64,000 nucleotides of DNA from an uncultured virus (IMG/VR IMGVR_UViG_3300031787_000018) (IMGVR_UViG_3300031787_000018:1-64000), one strand, 5' to 3'. Shown: positions 18,202 through 37,749, counted from the stretch's first letter. The notes: generated by a model not told the origin, from the sequence alone. Numbers and translations are program-made.

Positions 18202-18244
18202 TTGACATTTAAATAAACTTTTGTATATTTGTATCATATTTATT
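18202..18244 (+). promoter_or_regulatory. promoter of tRNA cluster 1
   Basis: TTGACA 18202, TATATTTG 18224, then ATATTTAT; similar to the promoters at 28594 and 33336. Confidence 0.75.
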
Positions 18245-18274
18245 AAACACAAAAAATTATATAGTAAACTCACC

Positions 18275-18364
18275 ATGACAAAGGCGACAACATACATTGT
18301 TTTAACTCACAGAGAGGAGAGAGAACGTTATCTGACTAACAGTCGGAGTGGATGTCGTATATAG
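18275..18364 (+). CDS. attenuator leader peptide 1 (Glu/Arg sensor), MTKATTYIVLTHREERERYLTNSRSGCRI
   Basis: AGA GAG GAG AGA GAA CGT run, followed by a terminator and then tRNA-Glu and tRNA-Arg. Confidence 0.8.
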   Translation: MTKATTYIVLTHREERERYLTNSRSGCRI

Positions 18365-18388
18365 TCATGTCTCTATATATCAAGATAT

Positions 18389-18416
18389 AAACCCCGATTA
18401 AGAGTCGGGGTTTTTT
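18389..18416 (+). terminator. attenuator terminator 1
   Basis: AAACCCCGATT-AAG-AGTCGGGGTTT+T; competing AGTCGGAGT at 18341-18349. Confidence 0.85.
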
Positions 18417-18471
18417 ATTTTGGCCAATAAATAAAAAATTTATACTTTTGTAAAAGTTCTTTGATAAACAA

Positions 18472-18543
18472 GCTCCCGTCGTCTAAAGGCAAGGACACAT
18501 CTCTTTCACAGATGAAATACGGTTTCAAGATCCGTCGGGAGTA
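18472..18543 (+). tRNA. tRNA-Glu(TTC)
   Basis: acceptor GCTCCCG/CGGGAGT; anticodon arm CATCT-CTTTCAC-AGATG. Confidence 0.85.
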
Positions 18544-18548
18544 CAAAT

Positions 18549-18622
18549 GGTTCCGTAACTCAATAGGATAGAGTAACTACCTTCTAAGTAGTAAGTTACA
18601 GGTTCGATCCCTGTCGGAATCA
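18549..18622 (+). tRNA. tRNA-Arg(TCT)
   Basis: GGTTCCG/CGGAATC; ACTAC-CTTCTAA-GTAGT; GGTTCGATCC. Confidence 0.92.
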
Positions 18623-18711
18623 CAAAAAAAGTGATAAAAAATTTATAAAGCGTATTGACAGAAGAGGTTTTTATCACTAGTATTAACAAACAAAAACGAT
18701 ATAGTTCTTTA

Positions 18712-19035
18712 AAATACTGATACTTGAATATTTGAAGCGGTTGGAATGATTACATCAAACAACTATGATTCAGAAAAAGGACATTTTACCTAAGTATTGT
18801 CCAAGGTTTAATTAAAAGATGGGTATTAAGTTATCGTCCTGTTAAACTTAAAAAAACAATGGGAGTTTGTTAGCAACTCTAAAATCTAACAAGTTAGGAA
18901 GGGACTTTAAAACCCCCGAGTTTATTAGTGTCTGTAAAACCTAGTCAGGGTCACTCCTGGTCTTCCCCGAGATGGGGAACACGAAAAGTAACCATTATTC
19001 TGAAACATTCTCAGATATCAAGTTATCTAGTATTT
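18712..19035 (+). ncRNA. Y-RNA-like RNA 1 (about 320 nt, long terminal helix)
   Basis: paired ends (AAATACTGATACTTGA/TCAAGTTATCTAGTATTT, GGAATGA/TTATTCT); GAAGCGGT 18734 and TACATC 18751; upstream of the Ro60 gene. Confidence 0.65.
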
Positions 19036-19042
19036 AAAAATA

Positions 19043-19120
19043 TTCTATTGAAGCGGTGAAGAAAGTTACATCATTATTATTGAAAACGAAAAACACTTTC
19101 ATCTAAAATACTCAATAGGT
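19043..19120 (+). ncRNA. Y-RNA-like RNA 2 (minimal stem)
   Basis: CTATTGA/TCAATAG, GAAAGT/ACTTTC; GAAGCGGT 19050 and TACATC 19067. Confidence 0.65.
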
Positions 19121-19167
19121 ACTTTATTTGTCCACGTTAACTGTAAGAGTTAATTGTGAGACCTTAC

Positions 19168-19201
19168 AGTCCCTACGAGTAAAATTGTGGGGACTTTTTT
19201 T
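19168..19201 (+). terminator. terminator between the Y-like RNAs and Ro60
   Basis: AGTCCCTAC...GTGGGGACT followed by T-run. Confidence 0.7.
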
Positions 19202-19231
19202 ATTTTATTAAACAATATTAAATTTTAAGTT

Positions 19232-20842
19232 ATGACAAAGTTCAAATCAAAAGCAGTGGAAAATTTTGACGGTGGTATTTCTTATACCTTAAACCCATTG
19301 GATACATTACGTATCGTGGCAGCATCATCTATCTTTGGTGAACCATCTTATTACAGAGGTTCTCACGACAAACCATCTAACTTATCTACGTTAAAGACGT
19401 ATGACGTGTTAGGTTTGTACAAAGACCCAAGTGATACAACTACTGATGTTTTCACTAAGGCTATCGACGAGGCTTTAGACTATGACTTCAAGGCAACCCT
19501 TGAGTTAGCTAAGACTCTTCGTCACGAACACTTCATGAGGTTAAACCCAGCGGTTATCTTCATTAGAGCGTCTCAACACCCAAAGAGGGTTGAATTTAAC
19601 GAAGCAAACCCAGGTTTGATGAAACAATACGGTTTGGACATTGTTGGTCGTCCTGATGACATCACCAACCAATTTGATTACTACATGTTCTTAAACGGTT
19701 CTAAGAATGGTTTACCATCTATCGTTAAGAGGACATGGGCTGAGAAGTTGGCGTCTTTCACCAAGTACCAAATCAAGAAATATAAGTCAAAGTCATTAAT
19801 TGACTTGGTTCGTATTTCTCACGCACACTCTGAAGTTATCGATGAGTTAATGAAGACTGGTGACGTGGCTGTTTCTGAAACTGAAACAACTTGGGAATCA
19901 CTTAGGTCTCAAGGTAAGACTTGGAAGGAAATTCTTAACACAATTAAGGTTTCACACATGGCTTTACTTAGGAACTTAAGGGGTATTTTCACTGAGGTGA
20001 ATGATACTGAAGTGGCTAAGAAGGTTTTAACTGACCTTAAGGCAGGTGTTAAGTTTGGTAAGCAATTCCCATTCCGTTACTACACAGCTTACAAGGAAAT
20101 CGATAAGGTTTCTATAAACCACAAGGGTATGATACTTGACGCTTTACAAGAGTGTCTTGACATCTCTATCGAAAACTTCCCTAAGTTAAAGGGTAAGGTG
20201 GCTTGTTTATCAGATAACTCTGGTTCAGCTTGGGGTACAATGACCTCTGAGTATGGTACAACCCATATTGCTGAAATTGCTAACTTATCATCTATCATCA
20301 CAGCTTTATGTTCTGATGAAGGATATGTCGGTGTCTTTGGTGAAAGATTGAGTTTAAAACCTGTTTCTAAAAGAGACGGTATTATTACTCAGTTGGAAGA
20401 AACTTGTAAGAGAGGTAAGTCTCAAGGACAATCTTGTGAACACGGTATTTGGTTATTCTTACGTGAAGCAATCGACACTAAAACTCACTATGATACTATC
20501 TTTATTTATAGTGACATGCAGGCAGGACACGGTGGTCTTTACGGTACAAGTGTAAGCCGTGGTGACGTTCACTCTAGAGGTGGAAGTTATGTAGACGTAC
20601 TTAAAATGGTACAAGAATACCGTAAGAAGGTTAACCCAAAGGTTAACGTATTCACAGTCCAAGTGGCTGGATACAACAACTCTGTTGTACCTGAAAACCT
20701 TTACAGGGGTTCAGTACTTGGGGGTTGGACTGGTAAGGAAGCCTTATACGCTAGTGAGGTAATCAAGACTTGGGATGAAATTGAGTCTAACGACAAGGTT
20801 ACATCTGAGGTTGAAGTTACTGAACAAGTAGTACAATCTTAA
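19232..20842 (+). CDS. rsr: Ro60/Rsr TROVE-domain RNA-binding protein with vWA domain
   Basis: FGEPSYY, MALLRNLRGI, QFPFRYYTAY, MIDAS DNSGSA, IYSDMQ. Confidence 0.92.
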   Translation: MTKFKSKAVENFDGGISYTLNPLDTLRIVAASSIFGEPSYYRGSHDKPSNLSTLKTYDVLGLYKDPSDTTTDVFTKAIDEALDYDFKATLELAKTLRHEHFMRLNPAVIFIRASQHPKRVEFNEANPGLMKQYGLDIVGRPDDITNQFDYYMFLNGSKNGLPSIVKRTWAEKLASFTKYQIKKYKSKSLIDLVRISHAHSEVIDELMKTGDVAVSETETTWESLRSQGKTWKEILNTIKVSHMALLRNLRGIFTEVNDTEVAKKVLTDLKAGVKFGKQFPFRYYTAYKEIDKVSINHKGMILDALQECLDISIENFPKLKGKVACLSDNSGSAWGTMTSEYGTTHIAEIANLSSIITALCSDEGYVGVFGERLSLKPVSKRDGIITQLEETCKRGKSQGQSCEHGIWLFLREAIDTKTHYDTIFIYSDMQAGHGGLYGTSVSRGDVHSRGGSYVDVLKMVQEYRKKVNPKVNVFTVQVAGYNNSVVPENLYRGSVLGGWTGKEALYASEVIKTWDEIESNDKVTSEVEVTEQVVQS

Positions 20843-20847
20843 AAAAT

Positions 20848-21318
20848 ATGGGGGACTTAATGTCCCCCTATTTATTTTATAGTGATATTATATTATTATT
20901 ATATTCCGTGGTAAAGACGGAATATTTTTCATTTCTCAAGTACAACCGATTCAAATTTGGTAAACAGGAGGTTTCACAATTTGTAATTTTTGAGTTTAAG
21001 TGGTTGTTTTCAATAATAATTTTTTATTTTCATAAGTGTGATGATTCACAAGATAGGTTTCATACTCACGCTTTTAATGCCCTATCATTTAAACTATTTG
21101 GTCAATATGATGAACATATATTAGATGATGAATCTAATGGTTCCTATCATACAGAACGTAGAACACAAGTGGTAAAATATTTCCCTAGGGATTCTTATCA
21201 TCGTATAGCAAACAGTAATGGTTGTTGTACTTTGTTGTTATCAGGCCCATGGAAAAAACATTGGAAGGAGTATGTTGACGGTAATGTAATACATTATACT
21301 TGGGGTAGAAAGAAATAG
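20848..21318 (+). CDS. hypothetical cupin-like protein; start may be GTG 20908
   Basis: FHTHAF...YDEH...SYHRI...TLLLSGP. Confidence 0.55.
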   Translation: MGDLMSPYLFYSDIILLLYSVVKTEYFSFLKYNRFKFGKQEVSQFVIFEFKWLFSIIIFYFHKCDDSQDRFHTHAFNALSFKLFGQYDEHILDDESNGSYHTERRTQVVKYFPRDSYHRIANSNGCCTLLLSGPWKKHWKEYVDGNVIHYTWGRKK

Positions 21319-21371
21319 TTTGATTTTAATTTTTTATACACTATATTTGTGGTTAATAAAAACAAACAGTC

Positions 21372-22055
21372 ATGGAAAAAGTAACATTAGAAATTCGAGC
21401 CGCTGAGGGTGGTGAAGATTCGAAACTCCTTGTGGAGGACATGGCTGCAGTCTATCTGAAAGCAGCCAAGAATAAAGGTTTTACCGTAGAGTCCGAACAT
21501 TGAAGAGACGGACTTGTTAGTATTTAGCTGACAGGTAAAGGGGTTAAGAAATACTTCCAAAACGAAGTTGGTTGTCATAGATGGCAAAGAATTCCACCCA
21601 CTGAAAAACGTGGTAGAGTACATACAAGTACAATTACAGTAGCTTTATTAGATTCCCAAAATTATCAGGAGATAGACATCAATATGGATGAATTACGTAT
21701 TGAAACAACTCGTGGTACAGGTAATGGTGGTCAACATAAGAACACAACAGATTCTTGTGTGGTTATAACCCATATACCAACAGGGATAAAAGTGGTTAGA
21801 GATGGTAGAAGTCAACATAAGAATAAGGACGAGGCTTTAAACGAAATAAAACAACGTCTAAATGATTTATACCAACAAAACCATATGGATAAAGTTTCTA
21901 AAGAAAGAAAGGGTCAAATCGGTAGTGGTAATAGGGGTTCTGAAAAGAAACGTACCTACAACCAAAAAATGGATTTGGTTATCGATCATGAAAGTGATAA
22001 GTCTACAAGTCTTAAACAATTCATGAAAGGTAAATTAGAACTATTAATGTGTTAA
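21372..22055 (+). CDS. class I peptide-chain release factor, minimal (PrfH-sized, no domain 1), RF1-type PxT motif, with in-frame TGA (21501) and TAG (21525)
   Basis: one frame from ATG 21372: LEIRAAEGGEDSKLLVEDM...H*RDGLVSI*L...EVGCHRWQRIPPTEKRGRVHTSTITVA...GTGNGGQHKN. Confidence 0.9.
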
Positions 22056-22130
22056 TATTAAAGGTGGGAATTACCCACCTTTTTTGTTTTAAAGAATATT
22101 TATAAGTGTGAGACATTTAGTAGGTGAAAT

Positions 22131-22322
22131 ATGGAAACTTATGAAAGAGAAAAAATAGATAAAATATTAGAACTAATTAAGGAGTTAAACATTAAACACA
22201 ATGATAAGGATTTTGTTATTAGAGAGGTTTTAAATAACGAATTAAGGGCTAACTTAACAATTAATGGACTATTTGTTTCAGACGAATTCATATCAAATTA
22301 TATAAAATATGTTATCGATTGA
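22131..22322 (+). CDS. hypothetical protein
   Basis: 63-aa ORF after ATATTTAT. Confidence 0.55.
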   Translation: METYEREKIDKILELIKELNIKHNDKDFVIREVLNNELRANLTINGLFVSDEFISNYIKYVID

Positions 22323-22325
22323 AAT

Positions 22326-24125
22326 ATGAGACATTTAATCAAGAAAATATTAAAAGAAGACATCTTTCAAATGGATAGATTAAGGCAATTGGAAGAAGGT
22401 GACTTGTTCATCATCACAAAAGTTAATCAAAATCTAGAAGATTGTGATCCAGATGCTCTTAGTGTTCTAAACCCACTTATCGGTAAAGTTTGTAAAGTTA
22501 TAACCACAGATTGGGATGTTAATTTATATGACGGTATGTGTGAAGAACATTATGGTTGGGGTGCTTATATAATGTCAGAAGATATGGTTGGTGGCCACGA
22601 TTTATACGAAAAGAATGGTGAATGTAAAAAGGATAAATGTTATTGGGTTAATGACTACTATATAGATTATGATATAATAGATGATGTAAATACTGATGAA
22701 TTTTTTACACAACTAGACGAACAAGAAGAAGATTTTGGATGGATGGATGATATTATAGATATATCTATAAAAATAGGTGATGTTTTTTATATAGTAGATT
22801 ATAATTACGGTTATGACATGCAACCTATAAATTATAGACCAAATGTAGTAAGATATATTTTTTATGTTACAGATATTTTTGAAGAAGGCGGTAAACTTCA
22901 TTTAAATTACAAATATTGTGAACCTGTAAATGTCACATATAACCCAAAAGACTATATTAAATCCAAATGTCGTTCCACGCAAGATGAGGTTATTGAATAT
23001 GAAAGAGCTTTAGAGTTGGTAGATAAACAATATTGGCGATTTATGGGTAATAACAATATGAGTAATAATATAAACGAACAAGAAGAAGATTTTGGTTGGG
23101 CTGAAGAATCCATCTCAGGTGATTTAAATTTGGGTAAATATTTTGAAAATTCTGATATTTGTTTTGATGATGAAGTTAATGTTGATAACAACTGTAAAAT
23201 TACCGTAACAAAAGATAGTTTTGTTTTTAAACTAAATTATAGTTGGTGGTTGAATAAATTTGGTGAAGACAATTGGATGTTGGATAGACTTATCAGATAT
23301 GGAAGTATGGGATATGACAGTTATTATGTTGATTATGAGTTGGATGATGAGGAGTTTAATTATATTTATTATATGATTAATGAAGAAAATAGATATAAAC
23401 TAGCTGATTGTTTAAGTGTATTAAATGAAGATGTAAGTGAAAATGATTTAAAAAATAATCTATATGATGTTTTTGAAAATTTTAATGGTATCTTACCGGT
23501 AGAAGGAATGGCCTCAGATGTTGTTTATGAACTATCAAGAGCTTTAGAAAAAAATCGAAATCAACAAATAAATTTGGAGTTTGAAGATTTAATGTCAAAG
23601 ACTGTCGCTAAATTTGAACATGTTGGAGGTTGGAAAGAAGACTACATTTTAATAAAAATACCAAAAGAATTGGTTTTAGAAGCTTTAGAGCAAAATAAGG
23701 ATGAAAATTTAACTGATATTGTGAAAAAATACAGTTACGTTTTTGATATAAATTGGGATGATTTTTATTATGGTACTTTTGATTTAAGTGGTTCTGAGGA
23801 TCAAATTAACGATATTATGGCCGATTATTTGGATAAATTAATTGATATATTAAATAATGATGATACGATACAGACATTAAATAATTTTACATCTTCATTA
23901 AAAAAATTAGGTTTTAAAAAAGAAAATAATAAATGGTATAAAACAATTAAAAAAGATAATTTAGATTATGTTTTTATTGTTAGTGATATAAATGGTGAAG
24001 ACATGAATTTAATTCTAACTATAACCGTTTTTTATGATACACAAACCAAATATAAAAATTATAAATATAAAATAAGTTTTGACGAGTTGGGTTATTACAT
24101 TAATAATTATATTTTAGACATATAA
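22326..24125 (+). CDS. acidic modular hypothetical protein with IKKILKE and EEDFGW motifs
   Basis: 599 aa; two EQEEDFGW repeats. Confidence 0.75.
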   Translation: MRHLIKKILKEDIFQMDRLRQLEEGDLFIITKVNQNLEDCDPDALSVLNPLIGKVCKVITTDWDVNLYDGMCEEHYGWGAYIMSEDMVGGHDLYEKNGECKKDKCYWVNDYYIDYDIIDDVNTDEFFTQLDEQEEDFGWMDDIIDISIKIGDVFYIVDYNYGYDMQPINYRPNVVRYIFYVTDIFEEGGKLHLNYKYCEPVNVTYNPKDYIKSKCRSTQDEVIEYERALELVDKQYWRFMGNNNMSNNINEQEEDFGWAEESISGDLNLGKYFENSDICFDDEVNVDNNCKITVTKDSFVFKLNYSWWLNKFGEDNWMLDRLIRYGSMGYDSYYVDYELDDEEFNYIYYMINEENRYKLADCLSVLNEDVSENDLKNNLYDVFENFNGILPVEGMASDVVYELSRALEKNRNQQINLEFEDLMSKTVAKFEHVGGWKEDYILIKIPKELVLEALEQNKDENLTDIVKKYSYVFDINWDDFYYGTFDLSGSEDQINDIMADYLDKLIDILNNDDTIQTLNNFTSSLKKLGFKKENNKWYKTIKKDNLDYVFIVSDINGEDMNLILTITVFYDTQTKYKNYKYKISFDELGYYINNYILDI

Positions 24126-24550
24126 TGAAAAATTTAATTAAAAAGATATTAAAAGAAAACGAAGAAGATTTTGGTTGGGCCGAAAATATTATAAGTTCTG
24201 ATGATTTATTTATAAAAAGAGGGGATAATTATATTATAGATATGTGTAAAGATATGGTTGATCCCAATTTGTTTAAAAAAAAATTTTACGAATTTTATGG
24301 TGAAAAAATAGTTGATGATTTAACTTCAAGAATGGATATTAACATCTTTAACAACCCCAACATTGATGGTTATCTCAGAGAAAAAAAACCATTTCAAATA
24401 TTAGTCGAATATGATGGAATAAAAATAAGTAGGACAGGATGGAATCCTTGTTATAGTGACTATCAAGGTGAAAAATCCAAATTTACCAAAAAATTTCCTA
24501 AATTAAAATCTTTTACACCTTCAGACTTTCTATCGCTTATAATGGTTTAA
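24125..24550 (+). CDS. hypothetical protein with IKKILKE/EEDFGW motif
   Basis: MKNLIKKILKENEEDFGWAENII. Confidence 0.7.
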   Translation: MKNLIKKILKENEEDFGWAENIISSDDLFIKRGDNYIIDMCKDMVDPNLFKKKFYEFYGEKIVDDLTSRMDINIFNNPNIDGYLREKKPFQILVEYDGIKISRTGWNPCYSDYQGEKSKFTKKFPKLKSFTPSDFLSLIMV

Positions 24551-24676
24551 ATTTTTTAACAAACTATTGATACTAATTTACTGTTTGTTTTTTATTGGTT
24601 ATATTTTAATTGTAGGTAACAAAAAATAATACATTACGTATTAAAATGTAGATATTTATTATGAAAGGGTGTATCA

Positions 24677-30402: not shown

Positions 30403-30405
30403 CAA

Positions 30406-30897: not shown

Positions 30898-30901
30898 AAA
30901 T

Positions 30902-31001
30902 AGTCAGGTGGCGTAATTGGTAACCGCTATAGGGTTGAGGCGTGCTAACTACCTATATAAATTGTTTTTAAACAATGCAGGTTCGAGTCCTGTCCTGACT
31001 A
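30902..31001 (+). ncRNA. tRNA-like RNA, AGTCAGG family copy 1
   Basis: AGTCAGG/CCTGACT acceptor, D-arm, GCAGGTTCGAGTCCTGT T-arm; extended non-canonical anticodon arm. Confidence 0.75.
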
Positions 31002-31016
31002 CAAAAATAAAGACAT

Positions 31017-31121
31017 ATGGAATATATATTAGGATTTTTAATTGGTATAAGTATTTTTATTATTTTTCATAAACCTATTATTAGAGCTTTAGAAAAATTA
31101 ATCGACATTATCCAAGAATAG
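31017..31121 (+). CDS. small membrane peptide (34 aa)
   Basis: MEYILGFLIGISIFIIFHKPIIRALEKLIDIIQE. Confidence 0.5.
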   Translation: MEYILGFLIGISIFIIFHKPIIRALEKLIDIIQE

Positions 31122-31220
31122 TCAGGTGGTGAAATTGGTAGCCACAGCATATAAGACCATGGGCGTTGTGTTGAAACCTACTGGGGATTAGATTTACAGG
31201 TTCGAGTCCTGTCCTGACTA
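31120..31220 (+). ncRNA. tRNA-like RNA, AGTCAGG family copy 2
   Basis: same acceptor and near-identical T-arm as copy 1; different interior. Confidence 0.75.
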
Positions 31221-31223
31221 CAC

Positions 31224-31440
31224 GAGTCGAGTTGTGTTCGACTAATGTGCTCCCGCATGATGGAAGTGGTGTCACACCCACAGGGACCTGAGCCGATTAC
31301 TTGAATCTAAGTCGGTTGGTTGGTGTACCAGTAACAGGAGGAAGTTAACACACAAGTCCTAACCCCTCACGTAAGTGGGTTGCCGCTGAAGCCTCGAGAA
31401 GCTATTCGGTATTGGGGACAGTCAGAAATGATTGGGCGAA
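31224..31440 (+). ncRNA. unidentified structured RNA
   Basis: GC-rich non-coding stretch; hairpins AGTCGA/TCGACT, GCCGATT/AGTCGGT, CTCAC-GTAA-GTGGG, CAGTCA-GAAA-TGATTG. Confidence 0.45.
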
Positions 31441-31446
31441 AATTAT

Positions 31447-31521
31447 AGTCAGGTGGTAGAATTGTGATTACACCTTGGGACGAATGTCTAGGAGATACAG
31501 GTTCGAATCCTGTCCTGACTA
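31447..31521 (+). ncRNA. tRNA-like RNA, AGTCAGG family copy 3
   Basis: same acceptor and near-identical T-arm; anticodon arm closed by a 4-nt GAAT loop. Confidence 0.75.
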
Positions 31522-31554
31522 CAAGATATTTATAAAAGAGATAGGAGGGATTAC

Positions 31555-32037
31555 ATGGTACTAATACTTAACGCTGACTACACACCATTAACTGTGGCTA
31601 ACTTTAAAAGAGCCTACAGATTAGTGTATAAAGGTAAGGCAGAAATAGTGGTTTCTCATGGTAAAGTTGATGCTGGTATAATATTGGATAAGCCTTCCAT
31701 AATTAGATTAATTAAATATGTTTACTTTCCATATAAAAAAGTAACCTTATCAAGGTATAACATTTATAGAAGGGATGAACATAAGTGTTTATATTGTGGA
31801 TCCAAAGATAATTTAACGTTAGACCATGTTATACCAAGAAGTAAGGGTGGGCCAAACAGTTGGACAAACTTGGTGACATGTTGTATGAGATGTAATATGT
31901 TAAAGGGTGATAGAACACCTGATGAGGCAGGAATGGTATTATCACATAAACCATTTACACCTAATTATTTATATTTTATAAACAAAATGCATAAAATACA
32001 TGAAGAATGGAAACCTTATTTAATGGATGATAAATAA
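31555..32037 (+). CDS. HNH endonuclease (McrA-like)
   Basis: IYRRDEHKCLYCG...LTLDHVIPRSKGG..SWTNLVTCCMRCNMLKG. Confidence 0.92.
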   Translation: MVLILNADYTPLTVANFKRAYRLVYKGKAEIVVSHGKVDAGIILDKPSIIRLIKYVYFPYKKVTLSRYNIYRRDEHKCLYCGSKDNLTLDHVIPRSKGGPNSWTNLVTCCMRCNMLKGDRTPDEAGMVLSHKPFTPNYLYFINKMHKIHEEWKPYLMDDK

Positions 32038-32225
32038 TGGAAGGAAAAGAATTTAAATTTGTTGAGGGTATAGATTATTACCTAGATAAAGGTAGTATTG
32101 TACTTACTGAAGAATATTTAACACGTAGAAAAAAATGCTGTGGCTCTGGTTGCCGACATTGTCCATTTTGGCCTAGACATACTAAAGGTAATACAGAGTT
32201 AAGAGAAAAACCTAAAGAAAATTAA
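32037..32225 (+). CDS. small Cys-rich protein (DUF5522-like)
   Basis: VLTEEYLTRRKKCCGSGCRHCPF. Confidence 0.75.
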   Translation: MEGKEFKFVEGIDYYLDKGSIVLTEEYLTRRKKCCGSGCRHCPFWPRHTKGNTELREKPKEN

Positions 32226-32275
32226 AAAATACTTGACAGGAGATAAAAATTAATATATAATTGTATCATTAATAT

Positions 32276-32347
32276 CGCGATGAGGGTGTTGGTTCCCCAC
32301 CGGTCTCATAAACCAGGTCCACGGCCGTTCGATTCGGCCCGTCGCCA
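32276..32347 (+). tRNA. tRNA-Met(CAT), initiator-like
   Basis: C1 mismatch in CGCGATG/CGTCGCC; loop CTCATAA; own TTGACA promoter (32233) and terminator, no leader peptide. Confidence 0.75.
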
Positions 32348-32444
32348 CTAAGTCCCCTATAGTATTATAGGGGATTTTTTTTAACATTAAAGACAACTTG
32401 ACAAATTTAACAATCATAACGATATTTATATAAAAAGATATACC

Positions 32445-33023
32445 ATGAGAAATTTTAACGAAGACGATTTTAACAATGAATTTGGTGATGACTTTTTTGG
32501 TCGTTGGGAACGATTTAATGAACGTATGAAAAACGATAGAGATTTTAGACGTGAAATTAATAGATTCCAAAAAGATTTTGAAGAAATGATGCGTATGATG
32601 TCTAAAAATAAAAAAAATGGCATAAATTTATTTGGTTTAAATGATGATATGAGGTTTATACCTTTAAACGATTTTAGGACAAATAATTTTGATGGAATGG
32701 ATATTCCTGAAGATGAAATGGATATTGAAAAAGGTGAGGATGAAAATGGTGAATGGGAAAAAAGAAATTGGGCATCACCTGACGGTTCTGTTTCTTATAC
32801 TTCTTTCACACGTTCATCAGGTATTGAGGATTTTGGTGATAAAATATTTGATAGAGATAAAAACAGAAATATTTTTGACCCTGAAAAAGAAAAATATTTA
32901 AAGTTGGCTAAATTAAAAAAGGCTTTGGATTATTGTGTTGAACAAGAAAAGTATGAAAAAGCCGCTGAACTTAAAAAAGAAATTGATAAAATAACAGCTT
33001 CTTTAAAAAAGAAAGAGGAATAA
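32445..33023 (+). CDS. hypothetical protein with C-terminal UVR (UvrB/C) motif
   Basis: LKKALDYCVEQEKYEKAAELKKEI. Confidence 0.75.
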   Translation: MRNFNEDDFNNEFGDDFFGRWERFNERMKNDRDFRREINRFQKDFEEMMRMMSKNKKNGINLFGLNDDMRFIPLNDFRTNNFDGMDIPEDEMDIEKGEDENGEWEKRNWASPDGSVSYTSFTRSSGIEDFGDKIFDRDKNRNIFDPEKEKYLKLAKLKKALDYCVEQEKYEKAAELKKEIDKITASLKKKEE

Positions 33024-33092
33024 AAACTATAAGTAATATTTTTTTACTGTTTTTTCTTATAGTTAATTTTAAATAATCATACATGGACAGTA

Positions 33093-33323
33093 GTGATGAA
33101 CCGTATAAACAAAGAAAGACTCGCAACCATAAGCTTAATTTTGGCAATGTTCTTCAACCCTCTAGGGTTCGACGCACTATTCAACGCTGTAATGACATTG
33201 ACAGGTTCTTATTGGATTACGGATATAATATTTTACCTTATATCACTATCGTTTCTTGGGTTATATTTCTTATTACAAGGTATTAACCCAATAAAACACG
33301 TAAAAGAAAAAATAAAAAAATAA
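33093..33323 (+). CDS. small membrane protein
   Basis: two hydrophobic helices; FFNPLGFDALF. Confidence 0.6.
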   Translation: MMNRINKERLATISLILAMFFNPLGFDALFNAVMTLTGSYWITDIIFYLISLSFLGLYFLLQGINPIKHVKEKIKK

Positions 33324-33335
33324 TTTAAAAAATAG

Positions 33336-33382
33336 TTGACAAGTAATAAACTTTTACTATCTTTGTATCATATTTATTAACA
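33336..33382 (+). promoter_or_regulatory. promoter of tRNA cluster 3 (identical to 28594-28640)
   Basis: exact 47-nt repeat containing TTGACA, TATCTTTG and ATATTTAT. Confidence 0.8.
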
Positions 33383-33400
33383 AACAAAACAATTAAAGAA

Positions 33401-33496
33401 ATGAAAAATTGGCATAACATATCGAGTATACATAGTAATCGAATTAATAGTTCGGTGTACACATGGTGTGTTTTGTCCAATCAAGATAATACTTAA
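33401..33496 (+). CDS. attenuator leader peptide 3 (Ser/His/Asn/Ile/Trp/Arg sensor), MKNWHNISSIHSNRINSSVYTWCVLSNQDNT
   Basis: 16 consecutive codons from the downstream tRNA set; antiterminator TGGTGTGTTTT 33464-33474. Confidence 0.87.
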   Translation: MKNWHNISSIHSNRINSSVYTWCVLSNQDNT

Positions 33497-33521
33497 TGGG
33501 AATTAAGTTTTTTGTACAAGG

Positions 33522-33556
33522 AAAACCCACCACATGAAAATGTCGGTGGGTTTTTT
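33522..33556 (+). terminator. attenuator terminator 3
   Basis: AAAACCCACC-ACAT-GAAA-ATGT-C-GGTGGGTTTT+TT. Confidence 0.85.
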
Positions 33557-33584
33557 GTTATTTGACATATTGGTAAATTAAAAT

Positions 33585-33673
33585 GGAGAGTTAAGCAGAT
33601 GCATTGGAGCGTCGACCAGCTTTGAAACCTGGGTCTCGTTAAGTCGGGTGGGGGTCGGGTCCTCAGCTCTCCG
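33585..33673 (+). tRNA. tRNA-Ser(TGA)
   Basis: GGAGAGT/GCTCTCC-G; loop TTTGAAA; long variable arm; atypical T-loop. Confidence 0.75.
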
Positions 33674-33679
33674 CAAAAT

Positions 33680-33768
33680 GGTGTTAGAGTCGGATATTGG
33701 TTAGCCGAGCTTGTCTGTGAAACAAGTGTTCTTTAGTGAACGTGCGGGTTCAATCCCCGTCTATCACC
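33680..33768 (+). tRNA. tRNA-His(GTG) with long variable arm
   Basis: G-1:C73; CTTGT-CTGTGAA-ACAAG. Confidence 0.85.
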
Positions 33769-33775
33769 CAAATAC

Positions 33776-33850
33776 GGGTCTGTAGTACTAATTGGATAAA
33801 ACTTTCGGCTGTTAACCGAGATGATGTGAGTTCGAGTCTCACTGGACCCG
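33776..33850 (+). tRNA. tRNA-Asn(GTT) 1
   Basis: GGGTCTG/TGGACCC; TTCGG-CTGTTAA-CCGAG. Confidence 0.85.
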
Positions 33851-33857
33851 CTGATTT

Positions 33858-33933
33858 GGACTGTAAGCTGACAAGGGGTAGCTGTGGCCTGTTAAGCCAA
33901 GGGTGGTGGGTTCGATTCCCACACAGTCCGCCA
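33858..33933 (+). tRNA. tRNA-Asn(GTT) 2
   Basis: GGACTGT/ACAGTCC-GCCA; TGGC-CTGTTAA-GCCA. Confidence 0.85.
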
Positions 33934-33936
33934 AAC

Positions 33937-34008
33937 GGGGGTATAGCTCAGTGGTAGAGCAGAGAGCTGTTAACTCTAAGGTCGTAGGTTCAATCCCTTC
34001 TACCCCCG
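33937..34008 (+). tRNA. tRNA-Asn(GTT) 3
   Basis: GGGGGTA/TACCCCC; canonical D-arm; AGAG-CTGTTAA-CTCT. Confidence 0.9.
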
Positions 34009-34015
34009 CAAATAT

Positions 34016-34088
34016 AGTATCGTGTCTGAACGGTTTAGGAACTATCCTGATAAGATAGGAAAAGTGGGTTCAACTCCCACCGATACTA
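34016..34088 (+). tRNA. tRNA-Ile(GAT)
   Basis: AGTATCG/CGATACT; CTATC-CTGATAA-GATAG. Confidence 0.88.
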
Positions 34089-34095
34089 CTAAAAT

Positions 34096-34169
34096 ACATC
34101 TGAGACCATATAGGAATTGGTACTGGCTTCCAAACCCAGTTGTTGCAGGTTCGAATCCTGTCAGATGTG
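34096..34169 (+). tRNA. tRNA-Trp(CCA)
   Basis: ACATCTG/CAGATGT-G; anticodon loop TTCCAAA. Confidence 0.85.
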
Positions 34170-34174
34170 CAAAA

Positions 34175-34264
34175 GGAAGATAGGTAAATATTGGTTTGTT
34201 ACAGCATCCTGCTAAGATGTCCCGGGTAATACCGGTGAGGGTTCAATTCCCTTGTCTTCCGCCA
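34175..34264 (+). tRNA. tRNA-Ser(GCT)
   Basis: GGAAGAT/GTCTTCC-GCCA; GCATC-CTGCTAA-GATGT; long variable arm. Confidence 0.9.
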
Positions 34265-34267
34265 AAT

Positions 34268-34355
34268 GGAGAGTTAAGGAAGGGAGTGGTTCCCTCGCTT
34301 GTTTGGAAAACAAGAACCCATTAAGTTGGGCACAGTTCGACTCTGTATCTCTCCG
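34268..34355 (+). tRNA. tRNA-Ser(GGA)
   Basis: GGAGAG/CTCTCC-G; CTTGT-TTGGAAA-ACAAG; long variable arm. Confidence 0.85.
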
Positions 34356-34365
34356 CTAATAACAT

Positions 34366-34437
34366 GGGCGTGTCATATAAGGGTTATTATGCGAAGCTTA
34401 TACCTTCGTCAAGGTGGCTCAACTCCACCCACGCCTA
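34366..34437 (+). tRNA. tRNA-Ile(TAT)
   Basis: GGGCGTG/CACGCCT-A; CGAAG-CTTATAC-CTTCG. Confidence 0.8.
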
Positions 34438-34442
34438 CAAAT

Positions 34443-34517
34443 GGTTCCATAGTGTAATTGGATAACACGCAAAGCTACGAACTTTGAGACTTGAGGGTTC
34501 AAATCCTTCTGGAACTA
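34443..34517 (+). tRNA. tRNA-Arg(ACG)
   Basis: GGTTCCA/TGGAACT; CAAAG-CTACGAA-CTTTG. Confidence 0.9.
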
Positions 34518-34522
34518 CTAAC

Positions 34523-34548
34523 AAACCCACCCCATGGTGGGTTTTTTT
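34523..34548 (+). terminator. terminator ending tRNA cluster 3
   Basis: AAACCCACC-CCAT-GGTGGGTTT followed by T-run. Confidence 0.85.
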
Positions 34549-34584
34549 ATTTACATATGCCCCTAGTTTAAGTATAATTTATAT

Positions 34585-35103
34585 ATGATTAAAAATAGTA
34601 TTCCTGAACATAGAATGGGTGTACATGTTTCTGTACCGATAGAAGATATTAGACAGAACATGGATTTTGGTAATATAATCCAACCTAGATGGTTATTAAC
34701 AATACCACACAATCATGGTTTATATCAGTATTTAGTAAAAACAGATGGTCCATCAGTGGTAACAGTTGGTAATATTGATTTTGGTGTACCAAGATTGGAA
34801 TGGCAACCATTAAAATTAACCGTTGTAAGATGTGATGATTATGACACCACAAATACTATAACTTATACCAGTGGTACAATTACATTAGGTGATAGTCCTT
34901 TAGATGTAATCAGAAATTGGATGATGAGTTATGAAAAGAAAAATATTAGGTTGGAAAAAATAAACCATAATGGTTTATGGCATGAAAGGTTTGATATAAG
35001 AGGTTCATTTATAACAGAAATGAATCATGAGGTAATTATGGATAGGGAGATCAGTCAAATGGAGATAACAATAAATTTTGACCATTTACAGTATATATTA
35101 TGA
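34585..35103 (+). CDS. divergent T4 gp19-like tail tube paralog
   Basis: EWQPLKLTV...IRNWM...EKKNIRLEK...ERFDIRGSFITE...EITINFD pattern. Confidence 0.55.
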   Translation: MIKNSIPEHRMGVHVSVPIEDIRQNMDFGNIIQPRWLLTIPHNHGLYQYLVKTDGPSVVTVGNIDFGVPRLEWQPLKLTVVRCDDYDTTNTITYTSGTITLGDSPLDVIRNWMMSYEKKNIRLEKINHNGLWHERFDIRGSFITEMNHEVIMDREISQMEITINFDHLQYIL

Positions 35104-35570
35104 AAGAAAAAATTATGAGCAAGGTGTTGAAAAAGATAATAAAAGAATCGTTATTGTTAGAATCTATAGATATTTTTGATATAAATAACATACCTTGTGA
35201 GTTTAATATACATACTGAAAATAATAATAACATAACAGTAATATTCACACCAAATTCAGAAGACTTTTACCAATTAAGTATTGAAATAAAAGATGACGGT
35301 TGTTATTATGTTATATTCGGTGTTATTATTGATGATGTAGTTAGAACATCTTTGACTTTAAATAGTGATTACAGACTTAAAGTTTTATCTACTGTGTTCT
35401 CTTTAATTAAATACTATACAGATAAGTATAACGTTGAATGTTTGGAAATGGATATAGATGATGAAATGAGATTAAAATTATATAATCTTTATTTTAGTAA
35501 ACATTTTAAAAATTTCCAAGTAGATAAGTTAGGTAACAAAGTGAGATTAGTAAAAAATGATAAACTTTAA
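35100..35570 (+). CDS. hypothetical protein with LKKIIKE motif
   Basis: 156-aa ORF. Confidence 0.65.
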   Translation: MKEKIMSKVLKKIIKESLLLESIDIFDINNIPCEFNIHTENNNNITVIFTPNSEDFYQLSIEIKDDGCYYVIFGVIIDDVVRTSLTLNSDYRLKVLSTVFSLIKYYTDKYNVECLEMDIDDEMRLKLYNLYFSKHFKNFQVDKLGNKVRLVKNDKL

Positions 35571-35874
35571 TCAATATTTTAAAGAAATTGTTAGACCAAT
35601 AATTGGTGGGGATATGATAAAGGATGTTATATTGGTTAATAACGCTAAAATTAAAAATATAACAATAACGGAAGAAATTGAGTTACAAAAAAATAGTGTA
35701 GGTATTGATTTAATTGAGGATTGGACTTTTGATTTTATAGACCTTATTCAAAAAATAGAAAAAGATTATGGAATCACAATAAAAGATGATGAATATTGTT
35801 GTGATAATAACGGTTATTTCACTGTTAAAACTTTTGATGAATTAAATGATATTATAAAAAATAAAACATTATGA
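35557..35874 (+). CDS. acyl-carrier-protein-like protein lacking the DSL serine
   Basis: DFIDLIQKIEKDYGITIKDDE...VKTFDELNDII. Confidence 0.4.
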   Translation: MINFNQYFKEIVRPIIGGDMIKDVILVNNAKIKNITITEEIELQKNSVGIDLIEDWTFDFIDLIQKIEKDYGITIKDDEYCCDNNGYFTVKTFDELNDIIKNKTL

Positions 35875-36143
35875 AAGAAAAAATTATGAGCAAGGTTTTT
35901 ATAACCTTATTGGTTGTATGGGTGTTTTCGGCAGTTTATTTGTCGATTAATTCAATTTTTGGTATCTTTATGGATACAAATCCAAATATATCTAAAGCCA
36001 TATTAGGTTTTAGTTTTTTAGGTATGGTTGGTTCTGGTATCGTTAACAAATTTATTGGTAACGATTTAAATAAAATCGGTGAAGATTTAAAACAAAAAGG
36101 TTGTAAAACTTGTAAACAAAAGAATAAGAATGGGAATGTTTGA
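35871..36143 (+). CDS. small membrane protein
   Basis: two TM helices; C-terminal GCKTCK. Confidence 0.65.
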   Translation: MKEKIMSKVFITLLVVWVFSAVYLSINSIFGIFMDTNPNISKAILGFSFLGMVGSGIVNKFIGNDLNKIGEDLKQKGCKTCKQKNKNGNV

Positions 36144-36603
36144 TTATCTTAATGTTGACATCAATATTCTACCTGATTTAACAGAAGAAGAAAGGGTTAA
36201 ATTAGGTGGTAATAATATTGATTGGCAAACAAAACATTTTGAATGTGAAATGACCCATGTTTATATTGTTGAGGATACAGAAAATAAATTTAGACATTCA
36301 TTCTTAAAAAACAGAACACCTTATAAATTACAAATAAAAAGATTTGATTGGGAAGAGGTACCAAAAGAAGAAAGACCGTACCCAAATGCTGATGAAAATT
36401 CTTTTGAACACCTTCTAGGTTCTTTTAGGGAAATTAATGTAAGAGTTGAAGATTTAGATTATACAGGAACTTTTACTTTCTATACTTATATAAAACCAGA
36501 AGATGAGGGGATTGGTGATGTTAAAAAGTTAAAATGGGTTGAGTTTATTTGTGAAGTTGAAAATGGTAAAATAATTTCAATAAAGCGGTTGACAGATGAA
36601 TAA
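36130..36603 (+). CDS. hypothetical protein (MGMFD-start phage family)
   Basis: MGMFDYL...WQTK...YTGTFTFYT...WVEF. Confidence 0.65.
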   Translation: MGMFDYLNVDINILPDLTEEERVKLGGNNIDWQTKHFECEMTHVYIVEDTENKFRHSFLKNRTPYKLQIKRFDWEEVPKEERPYPNADENSFEHLLGSFREINVRVEDLDYTGTFTFYTYIKPEDEGIGDVKKLKWVEFICEVENGKIISIKRLTDE

Positions 36604-36822
36604 TAATCCTTATATTTGTATAAGAAATAAAAATACATAACATAAATTTAACATAAGCGTTGACAAATAAATAAAACTTTATTAATTTTGTCCATATTTA
36701 TTTATAGAAGTTGTGGTTCTGATGGGTTTCAGGAACCACCCCAAAAAAGACAGATACAGAACGGGGACTGTTTACAACGAAAACCCCACAAAAAAAACTA
36801 TAAACAAATTAAAACTAAAAAA

Positions 36823-36930
36823 ATGAGAAAGAATTACACATATCAACCGAGTACACCGAAAGCAGGGAAAGTAGCCGATAAAGGCTGTGATACCTTGAAT
36901 GGTTGTGGTATGTACAATTCTGTCTCATAA
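36823..36930 (+). CDS. attenuator leader peptide 4 (Tyr/Pro/Asp/Gly/Ala/Cys/Lys sensor), MRKNYTYQPSTPKAGKVADKGCDTLNGCGMYNSVS
   Basis: 11 of codons 12-23, plus Y5, Y7 and P9, match downstream tRNAs; antiterminator GGTTGTGG 36901-36908. Confidence 0.85.
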   Translation: MRKNYTYQPSTPKAGKVADKGCDTLNGCGMYNSVS

Positions 36931-36954
36931 GAATATATAGAGAAGAGTTTAAAT

Positions 36955-36991
36955 AACCCCCACAACCGATAAAAAAGTTGTGGGGGTTTTT
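36955..36991 (+). terminator. attenuator terminator 4
   Basis: AACCCCCACAAC-CGATAAAAAA-GTTGTGGGGGTT+TTT. Confidence 0.88.
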
Positions 36992-37005
36992 GTTTATAGT
37001 TATAC

Positions 37006-37087
37006 CCGTAAGTTGAACAGGTGGTGAGTTCCGTTGACTGTAGATCAACCGTTTTAAACTGTGGGGGTTCGATTCCCTCCTTACGGA
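37006..37087 (+). tRNA. tRNA-Tyr(GTA), C1:G72
   Basis: CCGTAAG/CTTACGG-A; GTTGA-CTGTAGA-TCAAC. Confidence 0.88.
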
Positions 37088-37107
37088 CAAAAACGTTCAT
37101 TGAAAAT

Positions 37108-37231
37108 AAAAAGAATAGAAGCGGTGGTATTGGTTACATCGATAATGGATATCAATTTGACAGCAAATCAAACGTTGTGGGTTCGAGTCCCATGATAAAA
37201 AACACCGATATTTTTATTCTCTGTTCTTTTT
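37108..37231 (+). ncRNA. Y-RNA-like RNA 3 with tRNA-like module
   Basis: AGAATAGA/TCTGTTCT and GTATTGGT/ACCGATAT stems; GAAGCGGT and TACATC motifs; D-, anticodon- and T-arm-like (GTGGGTTCGAGTCCCAT) hairpins inside. Confidence 0.75.
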
Positions 37232-37237
37232 AAATAT

Positions 37238-37316
37238 ATGGGGTTGGAGGAGTCAGGTTTTCCTCGCTTGGTTTGGGACCAAGAGACTTGCGTGGGTTCA
37301 AATCCCACACCCCATA
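37238..37316 (+). tRNA. tRNA-Pro(TGG)
   Basis: ATGGGGT/ACCCCAT; CTTGG-TTTGGGA-CCAAG. Confidence 0.88.
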
Positions 37317-37322
37317 CAAAAC

Positions 37323-37399
37323 GGATACGGCGCATAACGGCTGGTGTACCTGACTGTCTATCAGGTTTTAAGAGGGTTCGACTCCCTTCGTATCCGCCA
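37323..37399 (+). tRNA. tRNA-Asp(GTC)
   Basis: GGATACG/CGTATCC-GCCA; CCTGA-CTGTCTA-TCAGG. Confidence 0.88.
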
Positions 37400-37401
37400 A
37401 T

Positions 37402-37472
37402 GCGGGATTAGCATAAAGTTAATGTACTAGTCTTCCAAACTAGTGAAGTCGGATAGTTACCGGCATCCCGCT
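37402..37472 (+). tRNA. tRNA-Gly(TCC), atypical T-loop
   Basis: GCGGGAT/ATCCCGC-T; CTAGT-CTTCCAA-ACTAG. Confidence 0.82.
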
Positions 37473-37482
37473 CTAAAATTAT

Positions 37483-37557
37483 GGGCTACATCCCGAAGGC
37501 AGGGCACTTGATTTGCACTCAAGTGAAAACGGTAGGGTTCGATTCCCTCGTGGTCCA
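37483..37557 (+). tRNA. tRNA-Ala(TGC)
   Basis: G3:U70 in GGGCTAC/GTGGTCC; CTTGA-TTTGCAC-TCAAG. Confidence 0.85.
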
Positions 37558-37571
37558 CAAATATAATAAAA

Positions 37572-37662
37572 GGGTCTGTGGTGTGAGTGGTTTAAACCAC
37601 CTGTCTGCAAAACAGGGATGACAATTAATTTTGTTACGTCAGTTCGAATCTGACCAGACCCT
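37572..37662 (+). tRNA. tRNA-Cys(GCA) with long variable arm
   Basis: GGGTCTG/CAGACCC-T (U73); CCTGT-CTGCAAA-ACAGG. Confidence 0.85.
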
Positions 37663-37674
37663 CTAAAAAATAAA

Positions 37675-37749
37675 GACCTCGTAACTTAGTTGGTTTAAAG
37701 TGCTAATCTTTTAAATTAGAAATCGTGAGTTCGAATCTCACCGGGGTCA
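37675..37749 (+). tRNA. tRNA-Lys(TTT)
   Basis: GACCTCG/CGGGGTC; CTAAT-CTTTTAA-ATTAG. Confidence 0.9.

Follow-up and report, generated by a model that had tools for sequence, protein, structure and literature searches.

Why should a phage interpose a short open reading frame (ORF) and an intrinsic terminator between the promoters of its tRNA genes and the genes themselves? This question is raised by IMGVR_UViG_3300031787_000018, an uncultured virus in IMG/VR represented by a single contig of 132,425 bp (29.8% G+C), the first 64 kb of which (hereafter the window) were analysed here. PHROG matches that include a major-head-protein fragment, a Mom-like protein, HNH endonucleases and a thymidylate synthase identify the contig as a phage. 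In the window, four units composed of a promoter, a leader ORF, an intrinsic terminator and a tRNA array lie at 18202-18623, 28594-30403, 33336-34544 and 36589-37750. We propose, with a probability of roughly 0.8, that each unit is a ribosome-mediated leader-peptide transcription attenuator spelled in the amino acids of the tRNAs that it precedes. Statistics within the genome, modelled structures and co-variation on 29 IMG/VR contigs support this reading. If the modelled switch operates, a given set of tRNAs is probably made only while its codons are being read slowly by ribosomes.

A preliminary description of the window had claimed a common layout for the four loci, and promoter, ORF, terminator and tRNA array are indeed present in all of them (Table 1). 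The plan consists of a TTGACA promoter and an ATG-started ORF of 29, 30, 31 or 35 codons (L1 to L4, respectively), which is separated by 22-26 nt from a G+C-rich hairpin and its T tract (-14.3 to -19.9 kcal/mol over the four units); the array follows. The -10 regions of all four units run into TTTGTATCA, and the promoters of units 2 and 3 are identical across 46 bases. The motif ACATA at codons 6-7 and its ATGT/GTGT partner, also pointed out previously, were found in 4/4 leaders, and the two pair with each other both in minimum-energy folds and in the consensus fold of the L3 family. A Shine-Dalgarno match of at least 4 nt precedes 14 of the phage's 100 long ORFs and none of the four leaders; because the other 86 long ORFs likewise lack one, its absence from the leaders is normal for this phage and no argument against their translation.

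The tRNA genes of the 132,425-bp contig all fall within 18.4-37.8 kb, except for one weak call. ARAGORN found 22 tRNAs with default settings and, at a 95% threshold over the whole contig, 28, of which 27 are located at 18472-37750; Rfam gave 24 tRNA matches between 17000 and 39000. The amino-acid sets of the four arrays are {E,R}, {Q,F,T,V,L}, {S,H,N,I,W,R} and {Y,P,D,G,A,C,K}, and they share only Arg, which is read by different anticodons (UCU and ACG). The four leaders and arrays had been said to overlap only in Arg and to add up to all 20 amino acids. The overlap is as described, and the four cognate runs within the leaders (hereafter sensors) do hold all 20, but the array sets themselves reach 20 only if Met is counted.

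We compared the residues of each leader (Met1 excluded) with the set of its own array, taking the composition of the phage's 100 long ORFs as background. In-set residues number 8 of 28 in L1 (binomial p 0.008), 21 of 29 in L2 (p 4e-7), 20 of 30 in L3 (p 2e-5) and 19 of 34 in L4 (p 0.01). The true pairing of leaders and arrays is the best of all 24, with a z-sum of 15.75 versus 8.04 for the runner-up. The enrichment of leaders for their own tRNAs, as originally noticed, thus holds in all four.

How exceptional each sensor is by itself was judged from a six-frame check of the whole contig, in which we counted windows of sensor length that are at least as rich in the set and hold every set member. 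All 16 residues of the L3 sensor belong to its set, and it is the sole such window among 100,331 stop-free 16-residue windows. The count is likewise low for L1 (two places) and L2 (two, or one when Met is counted), whereas six places qualify for L4. Taken singly, the sensors of L2 and L3 are therefore striking, that of L1 is moderate and that of L4 is weak. The match extends to codons: in a hand count under strict wobble, the array reads 5/6 sensor codons in L1, 13/15 in L2 (14/15 if the interrupted tRNA-Met is included), 16/16 in L3 and 12/19 in L4. Arg is encoded by AGA in L1, where the array holds Arg-UCU, and by CGA in L3, where it holds Arg-ACG.

Minimum-energy folds of the whole leaders pair the 5' part of the ORF with its 3' part and leave the terminator formed. 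The first of these partners, around ACATA, is here called segment 1 and the second, in the 3' part of the ORF, segment 2; the 1:2 helix is predicted in L1, L3, L4 and the L3-family consensus. The alternative partner of segment 2 is the 5' arm of the terminator. Duplexes between the ORF 3' part and this arm were compared with 1000 dinucleotide shuffles, and no shuffle was as good as the L2 duplex (-19.6 kcal/mol) and 15 were as good as that of L4 (-14.5 kcal/mol).

Co-transcriptional folding, an approach already suggested in the preliminary description, was modelled as a snapshot in which the transcript is cut at the end of the terminator 5' arm, a ribosome masks positions -15 to +12 around the A site, and the share of the arm that is paired upstream is recorded. 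For L1 this share is 0.62-0.68 with a ribosome at codons 1-19 (0.31 at codon 15), compared with 0.05 without a ribosome and 0.04-0.13 at codons 21-30. The values are similar in kind for L3 (0.66 at codons 3-13 versus 0.17 without a ribosome) and L4 (0.47-0.64 at codons 2-11 versus 0.08), and in all three leaders the arm is also free when the ribosome is near the stop codon. For L2 the antiterminator is the default fold (0.87), which only a ribosome on codons 22-30 blocks (0.10-0.26). The snapshots thus predict that a ribosome stalled on early codons frees the antiterminator in L1, L3 and L4, and that in L2 the antiterminator is the default state.

The mechanism that we propose runs as follows. 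From a strong host-type promoter a transcript would be made whose first ~100 nt carry an ORF of 29-35 codons. Its sensor, at codons ~3-23, would present to the ribosome the amino acids, and largely the codons, that are decoded by the tRNAs just downstream. Should any of these aminoacyl-tRNAs be scarce, the ribosome would linger on the sensor and leave segment 2 free to pair with the emerging 5' arm of the terminator, so that no terminator forms and RNA polymerase enters the array. Should all be plentiful, the ribosome would cover segment 2 up to the stop codon, the hairpin and U tract would form, and a terminated transcript of ~190 nt would result. Without translation, segment 1 would pair with segment 2 in L1, L3 and L4, which would lead to termination too. 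Each unit would act as an OR gate over two to seven isotypes in this phage and up to 13 in its relatives and, because the tRNAs produced would relieve the stall, as a closed negative-feedback loop.

If the leaders are regulatory in this way, their composition should follow array content in related phages. GenBank offered no close relatives: a blastn search with 33300-34600 gave only generic tRNA matches covering at most 10% of the query, and a tblastn search with an 871-aa ORF gave no match. In IMG/VR, the exact promoter pattern and a single-protein anchor each returned only IMGVR_UViG_3300027793_000052 (318 kb), which is not independent because it carries the window sequence unchanged wherever the two were compared. 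The anchor protein, encoded at 34585-35103 between arrays 3 and 4, has only two homologues among 5.8 billion proteins, and its alignment led to an 18.9-kb IMG/VR contig (G001) in which the anchor is 31% identical and the array order is conserved. The L3 sensor of G001 differs from that of the window at four positions and still lies 16/16 within {N,W,H,I,S,R}, whereas substitutions in the leader beyond the sensor leave the set. The terminator of this unit and the antiterminator strand within its ORF are altered together. In array 2 of G001 the elongator tRNA-Met is intact, in keeping with the Met codon of the L2 sensor of this contig, and a promoter-proximal tRNA-Met precedes its L2 leader.

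A degenerate promoter pattern retrieved 89 IMG/VR stretches with 97 hits at 60 distinct sites. Fifteen of these sites have no downstream tRNA (six of them for lack of DNA), six have a tRNA within 150 nt, two have their first tRNA only beyond 700 nt, and in 37 the first tRNA is 150-700 nt downstream. A terminator together with an ORF of 24-40 codons is present in 36 of these 37, on 29 contigs; the remaining site, L153+5001, has no terminator and was dropped. Array content played no part in the choice of leaders: for each unit we took the longest ATG ORF whose end lies no more than 90 nt ahead of the strongest terminator. Array limits followed a lenient rule (gaps of at most 1300 nt and a break at a promoter-like motif); a stricter one, under which every terminator-like hairpin ended an array, truncated several of them and was dropped. 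The arrangement recurs widely within one group of uncultured phages. Indels of 3, 6 and 9 nt in the L3 family leave the ORF in frame.

The arrays vary widely among the 36 units, and the leader peptides fall into 12 families at 50% identity. One leader has a run of only Leu, Val and Cys ahead of a Cys-Val-Leu array, another a run of F, D, A, E and S ahead of a Phe-Glu-His-Asp-Ala-Ser array, and in a third a 22-residue run lies entirely inside the set of a 12-isotype array. The mean z of the 36 units is 2.82, compared with a permuted mean of 0.00 (maximum 1.11), and none of 20,000 permutations was as high. Because relatedness inflates permutation tests, the set was thinned by leader identity. 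Sixteen units with leader identity below 60%, a set that leaves out the window phage, truncated arrays and arrays with fewer than three tRNAs, gave a z of 2.85 (0/20,000 permutations), and 11 units with identity below 40% gave 2.59 (0/20,000). The share of array isotypes present in the own leader is 96-97%, versus 74-76% after permutation. Co-variation of leaders with arrays in related phages, which had been put forward as a check, is therefore evident.

Codon boxes were compared for whole leaders in the unthinned unit set, with the phage's long ORFs as baseline. Where the array holds only Arg-ACG, 17 of 24 Arg codons in the leaders are CGN, versus 205/762 (27%) in the long ORFs; where it holds only Ile-GAU, 25 of 29 Ile codons are AUY, versus 982/1769 (55%); and ahead of Leu-UAG-type arrays 10 of 21 Leu codons are CUN, versus 22% in the phage ORFs. 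No clear preference appeared for the Ser boxes in this unit set. The expected co-variation of codons with anticodons in homologous units is thus supported in part, for the Arg, Ile and Leu boxes but not clearly for Ser.

These data bear on the first alternative, that the units are the same attenuators but report general translation speed, translation coupling or stress, with the amino-acid match being secondary. Modelled ribosome delay at codons ~1-19 yields the antiterminator whatever the codon, and the five non-cognate residues in the L4 sensor would be no surprise in a device of this type. A general sensor, however, needs no leader composition that tracks array content, which is what we observed against 20,000 permutations, nor would it need the codon-box tracking, partial as this is, of the Arg-ACG and Ile-GAU arrays. 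We regard this alternative as unlikely.

The predicted structures are also shared across units. In all 36, the best duplex between ORF and terminator arm ends in the last third of the ORF, and with stem-only arms this duplex beats at least 199 of 200 mononucleotide shuffles in 16 units. When arms were swapped among seven units with dissimilar arms, the own arm gave -10.3 and foreign arms -6.6 kcal/mol, with 44 of 20,000 permutations as good. RNAalifold predicts an antiterminator of 13 pairs for the L3 family (seven sequences), three of them with compensatory double changes, and for the full L3-family alignment (eight sequences) the 1:2 helix plus terminator, 18 pairs with four showing double changes. 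In the 1:2 helix of this family, the common ACATATC pairs with GGTGTGT. Because strands are shared, the antiterminator, the 1:2 helix and the terminator of the L3 family are mutually exclusive.

In a ribosome scan of the 36 units, the terminator arm was sequestered by at least 0.2 more with a ribosome at codons 4-12 than with one on the last five codons in 28 units. The switch point usually falls at codons 17-23, which is the sensor end, and in 13 of the 36 units freeing of the arm depends on the presence of a ribosome. A switch of reverse polarity, in which smooth translation opens the terminator and stalling closes it so that arrays are made only while decoding is good, could draw on the modelled default formation of the antiterminator in L2; yet the scan found early-codon ribosomes to favour arm sequestration in those 28 units and the reverse in 0/36, which makes such a polarity very improbable. 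Least probable of all is that nothing is regulated, the leaders being chance ORFs before leaky terminators, or small proteins, and the match a by-product of codon usage: L1 and L4 are modest singly (p 0.008 and 0.01, with the L4 criterion reached at six places in the genome), but codon-usage adaptation cannot explain an array-specific partition because the phage has tRNAs for all 20 amino acids, and this reading fits poorly with an ORF and terminator in 36/37 sites, the permutation tests, a conserved switch-point position and peptides that diverge into 12 families at 50% identity.

Several points weigh against ribosome-mediated attenuation itself. Leader translation, ribosome stalling and a change in read-through are steps that we infer. 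When full leaders were folded at equilibrium under a ribosome mask, the terminator was formed at every ribosome position in L1 (0.90-0.91) and L3 (0.99). Because equilibrium folds of these two leaders keep the terminator formed, the switch must be kinetic, as in trp; the result is expected of a kinetic switch, yet it is no evidence for one. The duplexes of L1 (-8.8 kcal/mol, 150/1000 shuffles as good) and L3 (-9.5 kcal/mol, 517/1000) are at chance level, so that the complementarity between ORF 3' part and terminator arm that had been ascribed to every leader exceeds chance in L2 and L4 and is not borne out by energy alone in L1 and L3. Across the 36 units, the duplex is unremarkable in 14 (more than 20 of 200 shuffles as good). 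L2 has no segment 1:2 lock. Codons 13-23 of the L4 sensor are outside the zone in which a single ribosome is predicted to cause antitermination, and a queued second ribosome would be needed there; moreover, five of the 19 residues of this sensor (T, Q, S, T, V) are served by tRNAs of other arrays. Two relatives (L129 and L141) carry the array Glu-Thr-Asp-Arg-Leu-Ala-Met-Gly 66 nt behind the same promoter type without a leader, and in four others (L102, L106, L144 and L153) a tRNA-Met comes first, directly after the promoter. Leaderless expression thus exists beside gated arrays.

Transcripts can be added to these points. Six metatranscriptome runs contain the stretch, and we examined four of them as assembled contigs, which carry no ends, strand or levels. 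RNA contigs of all four runs span the L4 leader from upstream through the terminator into array 4, and those of some runs span the L3 terminator.

With the attenuator reading retained, the question becomes what the units sense. The preliminary description held that the phage monitors the whole tRNA pool. The four sensors do cover 20 amino acids, but the claim is slightly overstated: the tRNA-Met at 32276-32348 and the tRNA-Leu(UAA) are leaderless, the tRNA-Met of array 2 is interrupted, and the L4 sensor includes its five non-cognate residues. It is conceivable, although less likely than not, that the leaders form a multiplexed viral sensor of host decoding capacity that re-supplies the isotypes in short supply, and so serve as an inducible counter-defence and host-range device. 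The shortfall might perhaps arise from anticodon nucleases of the host, from tRNA degradation once the host is shut off, or from infection of a host whose tRNA pool differs, although we would not rate this as probable. A further possible, if doubtful, aspect is that each leader is a barcode of its array and that leader and array evolve by co-editing. An inducible counter-defence against anticodon nucleases, the further step taken in the preliminary description, is conjecture, and a plain role in negative feedback or demand matching fits equally well.

Table 1. Coordinates of the promoters, leaders, terminators, tRNA arrays and associated elements in the window
Feature	Position	Strand	Description
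Promoter, unit 1	18202-18229	+	TTGACA, 16 nt, TATATT; -10 region continues into TTTGTATCA
Leader ORF L1	18275-18364	+	29 codons; sensor REERER, codons 13-18; predicted antiterminator strand 18340-18350
Terminator, unit 1	18389-18421 (hairpin 18389-18413)	+	11-bp stem and T tract
Array 1	18472-18623	+	tRNA-Glu(UUC), tRNA-Arg(UCU)
Promoter, unit 2	28594-28621	+	
Leader ORF L2	28658-28750	+	30 codons; sensor LFVMTLTVLFQFTQT, codons 8-22; predicted antiterminator strand 28726-28738
Terminator, unit 2	28773-28812 (hairpin 28773-28807)	+	15-bp stem and T tract
Array 2	28816-30280	+	Gln(UUG), Phe(GAA), interrupted Met(CAU), Thr(UGU), Val(UAC), Leu(UAG)
tRNA-Leu(UAA)	30329-30403	+	own family-type promoter 30287-30314, no leader
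tRNA-Met(CAU)	32276-32348 (unit 32233-32377)	+	own 12/12 promoter and own terminator, no leader
Promoter, unit 3	33336-33363	+	
Leader ORF L3	33401-33496	+	31 codons; sensor NWHNISSIHSNRINSS, codons 3-18; predicted antiterminator strand 33459-33474
Terminator, unit 3	33523-33556	+	folded, -17.4 kcal/mol
Array 3	33590-34544	+	Ser(UGA), His(GUG), Asn(GUU) x3, Ile(GAU), Trp(CCA), Ser(GCU), Ser(GGA), Ile(UAU), Arg(ACG)
Promoters, unit 4	36589-36616 and 36660-36691	+	11/12 match and family-type, respectively
Two-hairpin RNA element	36706-36790	+	between promoter and L4 ORF; conserved
Leader ORF L4	36823-36930	+	35 codons; sensor window YTYQPSTPKAGKVADKGCD, codons 5-23; predicted antiterminator strand 36900-36909
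Terminator, unit 4	36955-36995 (hairpin 36955-36990)	+	12-bp stem and T tract, -19.9 kcal/mol
Array 4	37006-37750	+	Tyr(GUA), Pro(UGG), Asp(GUC), Gly(UCC), Ala(UGC), Cys(GCA), Lys(UUU)

Unit 4 has two further features. The two-hairpin element at 36706-36790 is kept in 5/5 L4-type units with three compensatory pairs and had no match in an Rfam search. Its conserved CCCC and GGGG stretches could form a pseudoknot, and because it contains a near-copy of the terminator 5' arm it may take part in the L4 switch. In a homologous unit from IMG/VR (L157), the array does hold Thr and Gln tRNAs, unlike array 4 of the window, and the Thr and Gln codons of the window's L4 may be a trace of older array content.

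The elongator tRNA-Met(CAU) of array 2 (28994-30047) is broken by ~1 kb that includes an ORF at 29109-29957. Pieces of the tRNA gene at ~29000, 29942-29952 (anticodon loop) and 30034-30042 lie around this ORF, and the gene was therefore judged to be interrupted by an insertion; relatives carry it between Phe and Thr. The ORF has weak HNH-endonuclease and D5-like matches, and the insertion is possibly an intron with a homing endonuclease. The leaderless tRNA-Met at 32276-32348 is probably the initiator. Array 3 is closed by a terminator at 34523-34544, and its tRNA-Ser(UGA), at 33590-33674, was called by ARAGORN only at an 80% threshold. The tRNA-His(GUG) of the same array (33682-33770) measures 89 nt and has a long extra arm, an uncommon trait for His, and its counterparts in two relatives (L009 and L115) are likewise 88-89 nt.

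Three tRNA-like genes (30902-31001, 31120-31220 and 31447-31521) have one acceptor stem and T arm in common but long or odd anticodon regions. Their Rfam tRNA scores are 41.3, 34.5 and 48.3 bits, respectively, and ARAGORN gives the third an 8-nt loop. Just after array 1, the window encodes a Ro60/TROVE-like RNA-binding protein (19232-20842) that is 52% identical to gp540 of Bacillus phage G, and downstream of this gene an ORF with an RF-1 domain (peptidyl-tRNA hydrolase-like; 21684-22055). The tRNA region looks like a wider module for RNA care and translation rescue, and it is speculation on our part that the odd tRNA-like RNAs are Y-RNA-like partners of the Ro60-like protein. The motif ATATTTAT follows each tRNA promoter (18233-18250, 28625-28640, 33367-33382 and 36695-36705) and also lies 10-20 nt ahead of many start codons; it occurs 47 times on the plus and 29 times on the minus strand of the contig and may serve as a promoter specific to the phage or as a translation signal. 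Both the TAnnTTTG-like -10 region and the scarcity of Shine-Dalgarno sites are traits that we take to be typical of Bacteroidota, and on these grounds the hosts are probably Shine-Dalgarno-poor and Bacteroidota-like.

In the metatranscriptomes, depth varies more than 20-fold per contig along the region, being highest at the Ro60-like gene, raised at the tRNA blocks and low at the genes between them. This pattern suggests RNA rather than contaminating DNA, though contigs cannot show whether DNA was present. The contigs break at 28611-28623 and 33353-33365, on the 46-nt repeat common to the L2 and L3 promoters. In 4/4 runs, position 30922 is joined to 31497 within one contig, with 574 nt missing in between, at a depth of 90-416 that exceeds its flanks; this join could reflect RNA processing or splicing, or else a strain with only one tRNA-like copy. 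One RNA contig of run X17 (depth 12) lacks 33507-33549 (43 nt), and with it the 5' arm of the L3 terminator. The gap sits between nine repeated letters and is either a jump of reverse transcriptase over the hairpin or a natural variant without the terminator.

Multivalent leader-peptide attenuators are known from enterobacteria, where they control ilvGMEDA (Leu/Val/Ile) and thr (Thr/Ile), and related leaders precede trp, his, leu and pheA. The phage units resemble these in having a promoter-proximal short ORF rich in regulatory codons and an intrinsic terminator and, as modelled, in their exclusive 1:2, 2:3 and 3:4 pairings and the freeing of the antiterminator by a stalled ribosome. In contrast to the enterobacterial systems, their putative targets are tRNAs rather than enzymes, their sensors list two to seven amino acids (up to 13 in relatives) with mostly one to three codons each, and they belong to a phage setting without Shine-Dalgarno use. 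Attenuators classically act on proteins of biosynthesis or aminoacylation, and because the genes downstream here are tRNAs, the units are set apart from the described attenuator families. No Rfam leader family was reached within 17000-39000, where Trp_leader scored 27.2 bits against a gathering score of 41.

The pheST operon of E. coli, which encodes phenylalanyl-tRNA synthetase, has an attenuator with a Phe-rich leader. It is similar to the phage units in that attenuation acts on a translation component serving the sensed codons and so feeds back on decoding capacity, but pheST senses one amino acid and regulates a protein gene, whereas the phage product is tRNA and several isotypes would be sensed at once. 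T-box riboswitches likewise report the state of a specific tRNA through a terminator/antiterminator switch, although they bind uncharged tRNA directly and have no translated leader; neither a T-box nor any other riboswitch family was found by Rfam within 17000-39000 at E values up to 0.1.

The nearest functional parallel is the inducible long tRNA array of Anabaena PCC 7120, which is supernumerary, horizontally mobile, associated with homing endonucleases, silent by default and induced when translation is impaired (PMC8421152). The terms 'attenuat', 'terminator', 'small ORF' and 'riboswitch' are absent from that main text, which describes no leader-peptide mechanism (PMC8421152). The tRNA region of phage T5, the best studied of its kind, resembles the present one in that promoters, small ORFs, HNH endonucleases and tRNA-like stable RNAs are found among its many tRNA genes. 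It was rejected as a precedent, with 0/14 translated small T5 ORFs listing the amino acids of the tRNAs behind them, and the literature covered here gave no support for an attenuator-like idea about this region. One ORF of T5 (T5.070; L182 14628-14756) encodes 42 amino acids with six Cys in two CxxC pairs and lies directly before tRNA-Cys, but it is most likely a zinc-ribbon protein and its position a coincidence. Full-text searches found no account of leader-peptide control of tRNA genes within a coverage that excludes most subscription journals and old scans, and an older description may exist.

Leader-peptide attenuation is textbook knowledge for amino-acid and synthetase genes, and what sets the present case apart is that tRNA genes are the apparent target and that the arrangement recurs in many uncultured phages with differing arrays. 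For annotation, this suggests a rule by which an ORF of ~30 codons and a terminator ahead of a phage tRNA array are read as a regulator, the peptide of which predicts the content of the array. If the units work as modelled, they would be natural, compact and programmable sensors for the supply of chosen aminoacyl-tRNAs. They would also explain how large phages can hold 20-40 tRNA genes without over-production, and would connect phage tRNAs directly, and in a testable way, with the decoding state of the infected cell and with defences that target tRNAs.

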